From Escherichia coli (GTDB taxonomy: Bacteria; Pseudomonadota; Gammaproteobacteria; Enterobacterales; Enterobacteriaceae), in NCBI RefSeq assembly GCF_003334335.1, contig NZ_QOWQ01000019.1: a stretch of DNA of 64,000 bases. The stretch is one strand, 5' to 3'. Both the position numbers and the translations under genes were made by a program. How positions within the stretch are numbered: the first letter of the stretch is position 1; each line of letters begins with the position of its first letter. The notes under the pieces were generated by a model. It was not told the DNA's origin. It did not search any database and saw nothing but the letters and a program-made list of their open reading frames with translations. Shown here in pieces: positions 4,368 through 9,753 of the stretch.

Positions 4368-5303
4368 ATGTCGCAAAATCAAGAAATTAGTAAGAAAGAA
4401 CAATACAACCTGAACAAATTACAAAAACGTCTGCGTCGTAACGTGGGCGAAGCCATTGCTGACTTCAATATGATTGAAGAAGGCGATCGCATCATGGTTT
4501 GCCTCTCCGGGGGTAAAGACAGCTATACCATGCTGGAGATTCTGCGCAATTTGCAGCAAAGCGCGCCAATCAATTTTTCGCTGGTGGCTGTTAACCTCGA
4601 TCAAAAGCAACCGGGCTTCCCGGAACACGTTCTGCCCGAGTATCTTGAAAAGCTGGGCGTTGAGTACAAGATTGTTGAAGAGAATACTTACGGTATCGTG
4701 AAAGAGAAGATTCCAGAGGGCAAAACCACTTGCTCACTGTGTTCTCGCCTTCGTCGCGGTATCCTTTATCGTACCGCAACGGAACTGGGGGCGACGAAGA
4801 TCGCGTTGGGTCACCATCGTGACGATATCCTGCAAACGTTGTTCTTAAATATGTTCTACGGCGGTAAGATGAAAGGTATGCCTCCGAAACTGATGAGCGA
4901 TGATGGCAAACATATCGTTATTCGTCCGCTGGCCTACTGCCGCGAGAAAGATATTCAGCGATTTGCCGATGCAAAAGCGTTCCCGATTATTCCGTGCAAC
5001 CTGTGCGGTTCACAGCCTAACCTGCAACGTCAGGTGATTGCTGACATGTTGCGTGACTGGGATAAACGTTATCCAGGGCGTATCGAGACGATGTTCAGCG
5101 CGATGCAGAATGTGGTGCCGTCGCATCTGTGCGATACCAACCTGTTCGATTTCAAAGGCATCACCCACGGTTCTGAAGTGGTTAACGGGGGTGATCTGGC
5201 GTTTGATCGCGAAGAGATCCCACTACAACCGGCGTGCTGGCAGCCAGAAGAAGATGAAAATCAGTTGGATGAGTTACGGCTGAATGTGGTTGAAGTGAAA
5301 TAA
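4368..5303 (+). CDS. ttcA: tRNA 2-thiocytidine(32) synthetase
   Basis: 311 aa; PP-loop SGGKDS motif and CxxC pairs; N-terminus [56 protein letters not shown] matches recalled TtcA. Confidence 0.92.
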
Positions 5304-5312
5304 CCAGGATAG

Positions 5313-5383
5313 CGCCCGATGCGCAAGCGTATCGGGCTACTCTTATGGAGGCCGGATAAGACGCGGCCAGCGTCGCATCCGGC
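5313..5383. repeat. REP (repetitive extragenic palindromic) pair between ttcA and dbpA
   Basis: GCCCGATGCGCAAGCGTATCGGGC and GCCGGATAAGACGCGGCCAGCGTCGCATCCGGC, typical REP palindromes. Confidence 0.6.
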
Positions 5384-5431
5384 AATCCCGAATAAGATGT
5401 TTACTCTTGCACCCGGCAATTCAACATTTCA

Positions 5432-6805
5432 TTATTTTAATAACCGCACCCGGCACGTTTTTCCTTTAATCTTCCCGCCCTGTAACTGTTTCCATGCTTT
5501 ATGAGCAACAGCCTGACGGACCGCGACATAGACATGCGCCGGATGCACGGCGATTTTGCCAATATCTGCGCCATCAAGCCCGATATCTCCTGTCAGTGCA
5601 CCTAATACATCACCCGGGCGCATTTTGGCTTTTTTCCCGCCATCGATACACAACGTTGCCATTTCTGCTTCCAGCGTCGCAATGGAACTATTAGCTGGCG
5701 GCGTTTGCCAGTTAAGTTTTATCTGCAACATGTCAGAAATGATATTGGCCCGCTGTGCTTCTTCCGGAGCACAGAAACTGATCGCCAGACCGCTATTTCC
5801 TGCACGAGCTGTACGACCGATGCGATGTACATGAACTTCAGGGTCCCACGCCAGCTCAAAGTTCACCACCAGCTCAAGCGATTTAATATCCAGACCACGC
5901 GCAGCAACATCAGTCGCGACCAGTACACGGGCGCTACCGTTAGCAAAACGTACCAGGGTCTGATCGCGATCGCGTTGCTCCAAATCGCCGTGTAATGACA
6001 ATGCACTTTGCCCTACTTCATTCAGCGCGTCGCAGACAGCCTGGCAATCTTTTTTGGTATTGCAAAACACCACGCAAGAGGATGGCTGATGCAAGCTTAA
6101 TAACCGTTGCAACAGAGGAATTTTGCCTTTGCTGGATGTCTCATAAAATTGTTGTTCAATGGGTGGCAAAGCATCTGTTGAGTCAATTTCAATCGCCAAA
6201 GGATCGCGTTGCACTCGTCCGCTGATTGCAGCGATGGCTTCCGGCCAGGTTGCCGAAAACAGAAGCGTCTGTCGAGATGCAGGCGCAAAACGGATGACAT
6301 CATCAATGGCATCGCTAAATCCCATATCCAGCATGCGGTCGGCCTCATCCATCACCAGCGTATTCAACGCATCCAGTGATACCGTGCCTTTTTGCAGGTG
6401 ATCCAGCAAACGCCCCGGCGTTGCCACGATAATATGCGGCGCATGTTGCAACGAATCACGCTGCATACCGAACGGTTGACCACCGCACAACGTCAAAATT
6501 TTGGTATTTGGCAGAAAACGCGCCAGCCGACGCAATTCACCTGCCACCTGATCCGCCAGTTCACGCGTAGGACACAGCACTAAAGCCTGGGTTTGAAATA
6601 GCGACGCATCAATTTGCTGTAACAAGCCGAGGCCAAAAGCCGCCGTTTTGCCGCTGCCGGTTTTCGCCTGCACGCGAACATCTTTTCCGGCAAGGATCGC
6701 CGGAAGCGCGGCGGCCTGCACCGGCGTCATGGTTAAATAACCCAACTCATTAAGGTTCGTGAGTTGGGCGGGAGGCAAAACATTCAGGGTAGAAAAAGCG
6801 GTCAC
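5432..6805 (-). CDS. dbpA: ATP-dependent RNA helicase DbpA (DEAD-box, 23S rRNA-specific)
   Basis: 457 aa; GTG start at 6805; Walker A AKTGSGKT, DEAD box, SAT motif; matches recalled DbpA N-terminus (M)TAFSTLNVLPPAQLTNLNELGY. Confidence 0.93.
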   Translation of the reverse strand: MTAFSTLNVLPPAQLTNLNELGYLTMTPVQAAALPAILAGKDVRVQAKTGSGKTAAFGLGLLQQIDASLFQTQALVLCPTRELADQVAGELRRLARFLPNTKILTLCGGQPFGMQRDSLQHAPHIIVATPGRLLDHLQKGTVSLDALNTLVMDEADRMLDMGFSDAIDDVIRFAPASRQTLLFSATWPEAIAAISGRVQRDPLAIEIDSTDALPPIEQQFYETSSKGKIPLLQRLLSLHQPSSCVVFCNTKKDCQAVCDALNEVGQSALSLHGDLEQRDRDQTLVRFANGSARVLVATDVAARGLDIKSLELVVNFELAWDPEVHVHRIGRTARAGNSGLAISFCAPEEAQRANIISDMLQIKLNWQTPPANSSIATLEAEMATLCIDGGKKAKMRPGDVLGALTGDIGLDGADIGKIAVHPAHVYVAVRQAVAHKAWKQLQGGKIKGKTCRVRLLK

Positions 6806-6834
6806 AATCTATTCTCGTGGTCATCGACGCAAAG

Positions 6835-7008
6835 TTAGCAGGCGCGTATCCTCGCAGATCTACGCTCACGATGCGACAATTTAATCGGTTCTTCATCGGG
6901 TGGTGGGTCAGGCATGGGTTGCGGGCGAGGGATCGGATCGGGCACTGGAACAGGATCGCCAGGAATCGGTTCAGGGACAGGAATTTGCAAATAAATAAGT
7001 GTCGTCAT
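6835..7008 (-). CDS. candidate small proline-rich protein (57 aa), not in the supplied ORF track
   Basis: ATG at 7008 preceded by GAGGGA; translation MTTLIYLQIPVPEPIPGDPVPVPDPIPRPQPMPDPPPDEEPIKLSHRERRSARIRAC; alternating Pro codons with varied third positions; stop 29 bp upstream of dbpA on the same strand. Confidence 0.3.
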   Translation of the reverse strand: MTTLIYLQIPVPEPIPGDPVPVPDPIPRPQPMPDPPPDEEPIKLSHRERRSARIRAC

Positions 7009-7065
7009 ATTTCCCTCTGGTCATTGGGTGGACTCTTAAAGGGTAGACGCTGATAAATAACAGGC

Positions 7066-7187
7066 AAAAAAAAGCCGACTCATCAAAGTCGGCGTCGTAC
7101 GAATCAATTGTGCTATGCAGTAATTCAAAAAAGGAAGTAAGACAATATGGAGCGCAACGCCCATCGCTTGACGTTGCATTCACCTGC
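7066..7187 (-). ncRNA. fnrS: FnrS small RNA (FNR-activated, Hfq-dependent)
   Basis: Reverse complement reads GCAGGTGAATGCAACGTCAAGCGATGGGCGTTGCGCTCCATATTGTCTTACTTCCTTTTTTGAATTACTGCATAGCACAATTGATTCGTACGACGCCGACTTTGATGAGTCGGCTTTTTTTT, matching recalled FnrS; intrinsic terminator at the 3' end. Confidence 0.85.
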
Positions 7188-7222
7188 AAGAGAGATATTG
7201 CCCTGAATGGGTAGAGAGTTTA

Positions 7223-7236
7223 TTGACTTCGCTCAA
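7223..7236 (-). promoter_or_regulatory. FNR-box-like site upstream of fnrS
   Basis: Minus strand TTGAGCGAAGTCAA resembles the FNR consensus TTGAT-N4-ATCAA, about 40 bp upstream of the fnrS 5' end. Confidence 0.55.
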
Positions 7237-7282
7237 ACTTTGCGGCGTTTTTGTATACAGACAGCCGGAAAAATTGCTTTTG

Positions 7283-8287
<1,005 letters not shown>

Positions 8288-8520
8288 TTATTTTGTAGTC
8301 TAGCCTTCTGGCCCTGTTACGCAACATCTCATCACCCCATTACCCTGAAATGATTAATAAAATTCTGTCTAAATTGAATACAAAAAGCAAAATGCTTTTC
8401 CGTATACAAACCGTGTGAAGTGTTAAATAGCGTCTATCATTATCAGAATTATCTGATCATATGACGTGGCTTTTTTGCGATCGGATAGCAACAAAAATTG
8501 ATAAAAATAACGGGATCTCA

Positions 8521-9753
8521 ATGATTACGCACAACTTCAATACCCTGGACTTACTCACCAGTCCTGTCTGGATCGTTTCGCCCTTTGAGGAACAGTTAAT
8601 TTATGCCAATAGCGCGGCGAAACTGTTGATGCAAGACCTCACGTTTAGTCAGCTACGAACCGGACCCTATTCCGTCTCCTCACAAAAAGAACTGCCGAAA
8701 TACCTCTCCGATCTGCAAAACCAACACGATATTATCGAAATCCTCACTGTTCAGCGTAAAGAAGAGGAAACAGCATTGAGCTGTCGGCTTGTTTTGCGAA
8801 AGCTGACAGAAACAGAACCGGTGATTATTTTCGAAGGTATCGAAGCGCCGGCAACGCTGGGTTTAAAAGCCAGTCGCTCGGCAAATTATCAGCGCAAAAA
8901 ACAAGGTTTTTATGCGCGCTTTTTTCTGACTAACTCTGCACCAATGTTGTTGATTGACCCGTCACGAGATGGACAAATCGTCGATGCTAACCTCGCCGCG
9001 CTCAATTTCTATGGTTATAACCATGAAACGATGTGCCAGAAACATACCTGGGAAATAAATATGCTCGGGCGTCGCGTCATGCCTATCATGCATGAAATCT
9101 CGCATTTACCCGGTGGTCATAAACCTTTGAATTTTGTTCATAAACTGGCGGATGGTTCGACTCGTCATGTGCAGACCTATGCCGGACCGATTGAAATTTA
9201 TGGCGACAAGCTCATGTTATGTATTGTGCATGATATTACTGAGCAAAAACGGCTGGAGGAGCAGCTGGAACATGCTGCTCACCATGACGCGATGACCGGA
9301 TTACTGAATCGGCGACAGTTTTATCACATTACGGAACCAGGCCAAATGCAGCATCTCGCCATCGCTCAGGATTACAGCTTGTTGCTCATCGACACCGATC
9401 GTTTTAAACACATTAACGATCTCTATGGGCATTCTAAAGGTGATGAGGTGTTATGCGCCCTCGCCCGCACCCTCGAAAGTTGCGCTCGCAAAGGCGATTT
9501 GGTGTTTCGTTGGGGAGGCGAAGAGTTTGTCTTATTGCTACCAAGAACCCCACTGGATACCGCGCTTTCGCTGGCTGAAACTATCCGCGTAAGCGTGGCA
9601 AAAGTGAGTATTTCGGGCTTACCACGCTTTACCGTCAGCATTGGTGTGGCGCATCACGAAGGAAATGAAAGCATCGATGAACTGTTTAAACGCGTTGATG
9701 ATGCTTTGTATCGGGCGAAAAATGATGGACGCAACCGCGTGCTGGCGGCATAA
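8521..9753 (+). CDS. dgcM: diguanylate cyclase DgcM (PAS + GGDEF)
   Basis: 410 aa from ATG 8521; N-terminus MITHNFNTLDLL matches recalled DgcM (YdaM); GGEEF active-site motif in RWGGEEFVLL; the track ORF from 8461 is an upstream extension. Confidence 0.88.
   Translation: MITHNFNTLDLLTSPVWIVSPFEEQLIYANSAAKLLMQDLTFSQLRTGPYSVSSQKELPKYLSDLQNQHDIIEILTVQRKEEETALSCRLVLRKLTETEPVIIFEGIEAPATLGLKASRSANYQRKKQGFYARFFLTNSAPMLLIDPSRDGQIVDANLAALNFYGYNHETMCQKHTWEINMLGRRVMPIMHEISHLPGGHKPLNFVHKLADGSTRHVQTYAGPIEIYGDKLMLCIVHDITEQKRLEEQLEHAAHHDAMTGLLNRRQFYHITEPGQMQHLAIAQDYSLLLIDTDRFKHINDLYGHSKGDEVLCALARTLESCARKGDLVFRWGGEEFVLLLPRTPLDTALSLAETIRVSVAKVSISGLPRFTVSIGVAHHEGNESIDELFKRVDDALYRAKNDGRNRVLAA

Follow-up and report, generated by a model that had tools for sequence, protein, structure and literature searches.

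The interval between fnrS and dbpA of Escherichia coli holds, on the minus strand, a short open reading frame (ORF) rich in proline, and the question that it raises is whether this frame is a gene selected for its peptide, a leader that regulates dbpA, or a chance frame whose conservation belongs to neighboring non-coding signals. In the window analyzed here (the whole stretch of 64,000 nucleotides), the frame runs from an ATG at 7008..7006 through 57 codons to a TAA at 6837..6835 and encodes MTTLIYLQIPVPEPIPGDPVPVPDPIPRPQPMPDPPPDEEPIKLSHRERRSARIRAC. A gap of exactly 29 nt (6834..6806) separates the stop from the GTG start of dbpA (6805..6803). An earlier sequence-only reading had described this arrangement (57 codons, a GAGGGA ahead of the ATG at 7008, 29 bp to dbpA) and was exact in every detail. 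Sixteen of the 57 residues are prolines, encoded by CCT (six), CCG (four), CCA (three), and CCC (three); they stand at alternate positions from residue 10 to residue 37, with a PPP run at residues 35-37, and this codon count bears out what had been said of proline at every second position, the use of all four CCN codons, and the PPP run. The proline density is far beyond chance. Among 43,362 windows of 33 residues, taken from the stop-free stretches of at least 40 aa in the six frames of the 64 kb, the 33-residue core with its 16 prolines was the maximum, and only 8 carried at least 15. The tail of the frame contains the rare codons AGA, AGG, and ATA. The features of the locus are collected in Table 1.

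Table 1. Features of the fnrS-ynaL-dbpA interval (window coordinates).
Feature	Coordinates	Strand	Basis or remark
fnrS sRNA and intrinsic terminator	7066..7187	-	Rfam RF01796, 134.8 bits, 7187..7070
Candidate sigma-70 promoter of ynaL: TTGCCT (7067..7062), 16-nt spacer, TACCCT (7045..7040)	7040..7067	-	Sequence pattern
Shine-Dalgarno (SD) sequence of ynaL, GAGGGA	7012..7017	-	Strongest anti-SD match in the leader, -6.3 kcal/mol
ynaL coding sequence, 57 codons and TAA	6835..7008	-	ORF, RefSeq annotation, Pfam PF23677, published SPA-tag detection
Variable N-terminal segment, codons 2-17	6958..7005	-	No conserved columns before residue 16 and variable length in a 30-sequence alignment
Pro-rich core DPVPVPDPIPRPQPMPDPPPD, codons 18-38	6895..6957	-	Conserved as peptide
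PPP, codons 35-37, inside D-PPP-D	6898..6906	-	Present in 103/109 intact family clusters
B1 GAAGAACCGATTAAATTGTCGCAT, codons 39-46, EEPIKLSH	6871..6894	-	Codons near-invariant in 28 unique orthologues of several genera
Variable 9-nt linker, codons 47-49	6862..6870	-	Varies as nucleotides and amino acids, length constant
B2 AGATCTGCGAGGATACGCGCCTGC, codons 50-57, RSARIRAC, including SD-like GAGGA	6838..6861	-	Codons invariant, including the rare AGA, AGG, and ATA
ynaL-dbpA spacer with weak SD-like ACGAGA (6818..6813)	6806..6834	-	CGAGA and TTGTGACCGCTTTTTC conserved, remainder varies
dbpA, GTG start, downstream cistron	5432..6805	-	Control for substitution rates

The frame is an already known and named gene, ynaL, and its recognition here is a rediscovery. 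The sequence-only reading had raised the question of a match to a newly named yna small-protein gene, and this proved correct. A 601-nt query around the ORF found matches in 5393 of 5426 complete E. coli genomes, where the feature is annotated as ynaL, "proline-rich small protein YnaL," and the ORF is 100% identical at the DNA level to loci annotated ynaL in RefSeq genomes. The K-12 MG1655 counterpart, b4743 (1409308-1409481; RefSeq protein WP_001296046.1), occupies the same interval between fnrS and dbpA, which settles the comparison with the K-12 small-protein annotation, and the peptide matches Pfam PF23677 (PF23677.1, "Protein YnaL-like") over its whole length (residues 1-57 on model positions 1-57 of 57; E = 2.2e-40). 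With ynaL already in RefSeq, Pfam, and the literature, the gene call itself adds nothing; what is new with respect to the papers on ynaL consulted is the division between a core selected as peptide and a 3' third selected as nucleotides, together with the family members that lack dbpA.

Translation of ynaL has been reported previously. VanOrsdel 2018 (PMC6001520) described the same protein sequence, listed ynaL among the positives of a tetracycline ribosome-profiling screen, detected a chromosomal SPA-tag fusion by immunoblot, and remarked on the adjacency to dbpA. In Table S4 of a 2024 survey of enterobacterial small ORFs (PMC11188072), ynaL has 6 retapamulin reads at its translation initiation site (TIS) and 20 footprint reads that cover 32% of the gene, a low ribosome-profiling signal; the same table gives a dN of 0.0054, a dS of 0.091, and a dN/dS of 0.059 within Escherichia, as well as a disorder prediction. 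Our literature search on YnaL found no reported function. Rare frameshifted alleles occur in E. coli, which implies that ynaL is dispensable in some strains.

To examine selection across genera, we collected 29 orthologous loci from one-genome-per-species contigs of Escherichia, Citrobacter, Salmonella, Enterobacter, Lelliottia, Silvania, and Pseudocitrobacter, and the sample was extended with loci from Klebsiella, Raoultella, Kosakonia, and Leclercia. In every one of these loci the frame is open; for C. amalonaticus this was read from the nucleotide alignment. A GGAGGG or GAGGG with the ATG is kept in most Enterobacteriaceae orthologues, and all indels are in frame, such as the loss of 11 codons in E. 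coli E69 and a duplicated stretch of 10 residues in a Salmonella protein. In the per-codon table, the amino acids of codons ~18/19-38 are constant and their third positions vary over all CCN, GAY, and CAR alternatives; at the invariant prolines all four CCN codons interchange. The consensus of this acidic segment of roughly 21 residues is DPxPxPDPIPxPQPxPDPPP. Substitution rates (Nei-Gojobori, 13 lineages) were calculated for three segments. The Pro core gave a dN of 0.121 and a saturated dS of 1.45 (dN/dS 0.08), the dbpA control a dN of 0.074 and a dS of 1.80 (dN/dS 0.04), and the codons of the two blocks in the last third of the gene, B1 and B2, a dN of 0.052 and a dS of 0.047 (dN/dS 1.1). 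On this substitution pattern, the Pro-rich core is under selection at the peptide level.

The proposal that selection had acted on a peptide rather than on a DNA repeat therefore stands for the Pro core, with its dN/dS of 0.08 and its interchange of CCN codons; the last third has a dN/dS of about 1.1, which points to the nucleotide level. Alignment of the interval across genera, the check that had been suggested for it, divides the gene in the same way: the frame and the core prolines are kept, and the last third is invariant as nucleotides. The reservation that the rare codons of the tail weaken the coding case was well placed, given this ratio and a tail that is not translated at all in Kosakonia cowanii. 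The nucleotide-level conservation of the last third, the rare codons, and the low ribosome-profiling expression are also what one would expect if the frame had no function, arose by chance, and owed its conservation solely to the fnrS terminator, the dbpA promoter, or other non-coding signals. However, this explanation is already refuted for the core, in which synonymous change is saturated and the amino acids are invariant. It is also at odds with a frame that remains intact across the species collected, with an SD and ATG in most of them and indels in multiples of three, with the same core in Erwiniaceae homologues in a different context, and with the detection of YnaL by immunoblot. We consider its probability to be close to nil.

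The last third of the gene raises a different problem. The B1 codons (GAA GAA CCG ATT AAA TTG TCG CAT) and the B2 codons (AGA TCT GCG AGG ATA CGC GCC TGC) are essentially invariant in the per-codon table. The dbpA genes of these genomes behave otherwise: of 308 columns whose amino acid is invariant, just 7 (2.3%) keep a single codon, and no stretch of invariant nucleotides exceeds 5 nt. K. cowanii provides a natural dissection of the two blocks. Its 49-aa YnaL is an established form (more than 200 contigs) whose ORF stops right after B1, 62 nt before dbpA; in the genome of L037 the ORF likewise ends there. In both cases B2 (AGATCTGAGAGGATACGCGCCTGC) is intact though non-coding, within flanks that have diverged from those of other Kosakonia. 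Judged from these patterns, B1 and B2 are conserved as DNA or RNA and bear no peptide signature. Within B2, the only variable position of TCTGnGAGGAT is the "n," and its GAGGA is the second-strongest anti-SD match in the leader; the motif would fit either an extended -10 element (TGn) or an SD-like site.

A series of candidate sources of this constraint was tried and rejected. B1 and B2 each occur just once in the window and once per genome in the 5393 E. coli genomes, which rules out a dispersed motif. Mimicry of rRNA or pairing with it found no backing, as sense and antisense local alignments to E. coli 23S rRNA were no better than those of shuffled sequences, and pairing with FnrS was equally good in 65 of 300 shuffles. 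A structured RNA is not indicated either: the RNAfold z score was -0.8, the RNAalifold consensus of -10.5 kcal/mol came with no real covariation, a TCGCA/TGCGA hairpin spotted by eye is broken by the Kosakonia variant, and an Rfam scan of positions 6700-7080 gave no match over B1/B2 up to E = 10. For a CsrA site at GCG-AGGAUA-CGC, the supplement of Potts 2017 lists dbpA with neither a CLIP peak nor an expression change in a csrA mutant. A sigma-70 promoter within the blocks had no consensus match, with only a weak extended -10 (TGcGAGGAT) and a poor -35 recognizable by hand, and the likeness to the extended -10 promoter of Erwinia dbpA was equaled by 569 of 1000 shuffles. Inspection by eye against the consensus sequences of alternative sigma factors and of several transcription factors likewise gave no convincing match. 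Two overlapping frames were also discarded: an antisense 78-aa ORF (6817..7053, plus strand) mirrors the CCN codons and so cannot be conserved wherever their third positions vary, and a 48-aa ORF in the +1 frame (6896..6750, minus strand) lacks its ATG in Salmonella, Silvania, Raoultella, and Pseudocitrobacter.

The gene neighborhood separates the core from the blocks. The collected orthologous loci all have the order zntB, fnrS, ynaL, dbpA, followed by an oppositely oriented ttcA. When 1.84 billion representative proteins were searched with a profile, only 38 clusters came back, and ynaL is a taxonomically narrow small-protein gene of Enterobacteriaceae and some Erwiniaceae; the divergent clusters keep the core DPxPxDPVPIPDPIPxPQPxPDPPP and differ at both ends. 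Phytobacter, Mixta, and an Enterobacter sp. carry zntB-fnrS-ynaL followed by a stem-loop and a convergent ttcA, with no dbpA at that place. Their YnaL tails are altered (DPPPHR in Phytobacter and Mixta, ...EEVPYKLSRV in the Enterobacter sp.), B2 is lacking, and B1 is absent or degenerate. In Erwinia, ttcA separates ynaL from dbpA, which has a conserved extended -10 region of its own. A stem-loop stands directly 3' of ynaL there as well; in Erwinia sp. it is a canonical terminator, and the corresponding stem-loops of Phytobacter and Mixta are clear terminators too, but E. psidii has a weaker hairpin that lacks a T-tract. Erwinia, Mixta, and Phytobacter all keep the Pro core and are missing B1/B2 and the RSARIRAC tail. 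Since the core is kept beside fnrS, which is immediately upstream of ynaL in every lineage examined, and dbpA is absent or displaced in some of these lineages, ynaL is not obligatorily a dbpA leader. The Pro-rich gene thus accompanies fnrS and persists without a neighboring dbpA, and B1/B2 are tied to a directly adjacent dbpA, being absent or degenerate elsewhere.

Upstream of ynaL, fnrS was the only Rfam match in a scan of positions 5000-9000. The stem of its terminator occupies 7093..7074, and the T-tract extends to 7066, ending 57 nt upstream of the ynaL ATG. At this distance the terminator lies outside any ribosome footprint, and the suggestion that translation of the ORF could influence fnrS 3'-end formation is implausible. 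The TTGCCT of the candidate ynaL promoter is built from the end of the terminator T-tract. The hexamers and the spacer length are kept in 18 of 21 lineages, with a variable spacer sequence; Erwinia sp. has the counterpart TTGCCA-17-TATGCT, and the candidate scores under the threshold of the consensus promoter scan. Because a terminator scan found no terminator-like site between ynaL and dbpA, a single transcription unit with both genes would be the simplest reading for E. coli.

The sequence-only reading had pointed to EF-P-dependent stalling at PPP as a possible influence on dbpA. On this model, ynaL is primarily a regulatory leader ORF in which stalling at D-PPP-D, dependent on EF-P, would control the flow of ribosomes or polymerases into dbpA. 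Three routes are conceivable: translational coupling, unmasking of the dbpA start, or Rho polarity once transcription and translation have become uncoupled. An Asp before and an Asp after a diprolyl motif each promote stalling (PMC4176338), which makes D-PPP-D a strong stalling context, and poly-Pro stalling uncouples transcription from translation and provokes termination downstream (PMC5021804). By analogy, EF-P-dependent stalling at this motif of YnaL is chemically plausible. The PPP is kept in 103 of 109 intact family clusters (the remainder have PSP, PPQ, or PPL), and Erwiniaceae members have a second PPP just before the stop, which would agree with a regulatory role. However, E. albertii and a large Citrobacter lineage (185 contigs) have lost the motif to PSP and contain no PP anywhere in YnaL. 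The junction can likewise be read in two ways: the dbpA GTG start follows the ynaL stop by 29 nt with only a weak SD-like CGAGA and no intervening terminator, as a coupled cistron might, but the K. cowanii ORF ends 62 nt before dbpA, and ynaL persists as a free-standing gene with a stem-loop directly 3' and no downstream dbpA.

Folding models bear on the unmasking route. When a ribosome footprint was masked over PPP, AGG-AUA, or the stop, the dbpA start region kept its predicted accessibility in 9 species; a SecM-like unmasking of that start by a stalled ribosome, which had no predicted effect in any of them, was rejected, and a parked ribosome with no such effect counts against the leader explanation. 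In the supplements examined from an EF-P/EfpL profiling study, ynaL is absent. A variable N-terminus followed by a conserved C-proximal stretch of 40 residues does resemble regulatory nascent peptides, but the conservation of the core peptide goes well beyond the needs of a stall motif, and SPA-tagged YnaL accumulates. Taking these points together, we regard a primarily regulatory leader as unlikely, though far from negligible.

A more specific form of regulation would place the sensor in the nascent chain. DbpA is a 23S-rRNA helicase, specific for hairpin 92, that acts on the peptidyl-transferase region during 50S assembly. The Pro-rich segment, whose IPRPQP can be compared with the apidaecin-type IPQPRP, might sense large-subunit function at the exit tunnel or the peptidyl-transferase center and thereby control DbpA. 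The geometry is suggestive, as the conserved residues ~17-57 have about the length held in the tunnel at termination, the N-terminus that would have emerged is free to vary, and B1/B2 lie exactly where a paused ribosome would sit; the hairpin-92 specificity of DbpA would also give such a circuit a functional logic. However, proline-rich antimicrobial peptides are cationic whereas the YnaL core is acidic, the tail shows no selection as a peptide, and B1/B2 have neither similarity nor complementarity to rRNA. No family or structural match for such a peptide was found, and ynaL occurs without dbpA. We judge this explanation to be very improbable.

The reading that we prefer, and hold with considerable confidence, is that ynaL is a translated gene with a variable N-terminus, a core selected as peptide, and nucleotide blocks in its last third, B1 and B2, that are linked to dbpA. 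The gene thus has three layers. The N-terminus varies, and the acidic Pro-rich core is the selected peptide, kept beside fnrS and also in the lineages where the gene is free-standing. In lineages with an immediately adjacent dbpA, the last third of the frame runs through B1/B2. These blocks would belong functionally to the upstream region of dbpA and act in cis on its expression, whether as a promoter/operator or, in the mRNA, as a leader or ribosome-contact site. In E. coli, transcription of the ynaL-dbpA unit would start from a weak promoter that lies within the fnrS terminator. As ribosomes must translate D-PPP-D on their way to B1/B2, EF-P activity probably affects the yield of YnaL and, in E. 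coli, possibly polarity on dbpA. We would see this effect as a secondary property and not as the reason for the existence of ynaL.

A bolder extension is offered only as speculation, and we think it improbable. The 57 nt at the ynaL 3' end (B1, the 9-nt spacer, and B2; 6894..6838), conserved as tightly as FnrS, could be a hitherto unrecognized cis-regulatory element of dbpA that was grafted onto an older, free-standing proline-rich gene and couples dbpA to the capacity for Pro-Pro bond formation. If this were true, dbpA expression in Enterobacteriaceae would be coupled to EF-P and to the status of the peptidyl-transferase center, as ribosomes pass D-PPP-D first.

For experimental work, the comparative dissection pinpoints the 21 core residues as mutation targets for YnaL function. 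As the conserved-looking C-terminal tail is a nucleotide signal by its substitution rates, tail mutants and C-terminal tags would disturb dbpA regulation and not probe the peptide. B1/B2 and the candidate promoter in the fnrS terminator offer concrete handles on dbpA expression.

With regard to the peptide itself, AlphaFold2 with the family alignment predicted an extended, non-globular YnaL with no secondary structure (pLDDT ~90 over residues 21-40, pTM 0.22), and a search for relatives in the PDB found none. The core is thus predicted to be an extended, polyproline-II-like, non-globular segment, and YnaL most likely would act in trans as a short proline-rich binding peptide of the polyproline-II type.

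Compared with known systems, the locus is indistinguishable from the annotated ynaL/YnaL (b4743, PF23677) in sequence, length, and position (fnrS > ynaL > dbpA). The proline-rich spacer of TonB (NF008084, PF16031) resembles YnaL in having an acidic segment of alternating X-Pro, similar in composition, and probably in its extended conformation as well. However, YnaL is not a member of the TonB family, since NF008084 scored 20.8 bits against a cut-off of 315, over the Pro-rich spacer only, and Pfam TonB_N gave E = 0.75; unlike TonB, YnaL has neither a membrane anchor nor a C-terminal domain, and the resemblance is one of low complexity only. The mgtCBR and mgtA leaders of Salmonella (the subject of PMC5299641 and PMC6460261) are similar in that a short ORF with consecutive Pro codons precedes a larger gene, and an EF-P input is plausible. 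Unlike those leaders, which use alternative RNA structures, ynaL has no such structures that we could detect, and it differs further in its long peptide-selected core, its detectable protein, and its occurrence without the downstream gene. SecM-secA and TnaC-tnaA are the familiar cases of ribosome arrest peptides that control a downstream gene. In contrast to them, ynaL has no predicted stall-dependent unmasking and exists in free-standing versions with a stem-loop or terminator, and arrest in YnaL is putative; what it has in common with them is a conserved C-proximal peptide behind a variable N-terminus, the Pro-rich chemistry at the peptidyl-transferase center, and a downstream gene close by.

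The 3′ third of ynaL, the proline-rich small-protein gene between fnrS and dbpA, holds two nucleotide blocks, B1 and B2, which do not vary between enterobacterial genera that are saturated at synonymous sites. In Kosakonia cowanii, B2 is kept as non-coding DNA, and loci that lack an adjacent dbpA, the helicase gene, carry neither block.

Sequence features in and around ynaL
Feature	Position	Strand	Description
B1 (GAAGAACCGATTAAATTGTCGCAT) and B2 (AGATCTGCGAGGATACGCGCCTGC)	6838-6894	-	Two nucleotide blocks within the 3′ third of ynaL
Promoter-like TTGCCT-N16-TACCCT	7040-7067	-	Partly coincides with the end of the T-tract in the fnrS terminator
78-codon antisense ORF	6817-7053	+	Exact mirror of ynaL codons
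ynaN, 15-codon ORF	about 8280-8327	-	RefSeq annotation; directly upstream of zntB (8266..7283)

Judged from its sequence, the promoter-like element may serve ynaL (and dbpA): both hexamers and the spacer length are conserved in 18 of 21 lineages, with a variable spacer sequence. Published CLIP-seq data place a CsrA peak (1409142-1409250) on the adjoining sRNA FnrS (fnrS, window 7070-7187, minus strand). This peak reaches only as far as the terminator, leaving ynaL uncovered; according to the authors of that study, CsrA alone showed no high-affinity FnrS binding in vitro. Another known micro-ORF of the window, ynaN, is also shorter than the usual length cut-offs for ORFs, and 112 retapamulin initiation reads are listed for it in a published table.

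The Pro-repeat region of ynaL is prone to indels, as seen in E. coli E69 (L009), in a Salmonella enterica protein variant (P0053) and in several E. coli variants (P0041, P0058, P0065, P0106, P0110 and P0137); among the in-frame changes are a deletion of 11 codons and a duplication of 10 residues. A frameshift in a few rare E. coli alleles leads into the +1 frame, which continues across the dbpA start, and ynaL is therefore dispensable in some strains. On the opposite strand, where CCN is read as NGG, the antisense ORF encodes a Trp/Arg/Gly-rich run. This frame was rejected as a by-product of the ynaL Pro codons, its conservation being impossible where CCN third positions vary.

The ynaL homologues of Phytobacter, Erwinia and Mixta (L038, L039, L043 and L044) carry, just ahead of the stop codon, a second run of prolines, giving the C-terminal ends DPPPHR*, DPPPHM* and DPPPYR*. 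Directly 3′ of these homologues lies a stem-loop rather than dbpA, and in three of the four it is a canonical terminator. The two Erwinia species share the motif CGCTTTTCTG(C/T)TACACTCAG about 60 nt upstream of dbpA (L039:3140-3360 and L043:3700-3925). It contains an extended −10-like TGnTACACT and is probably an independent dbpA promoter in that family.
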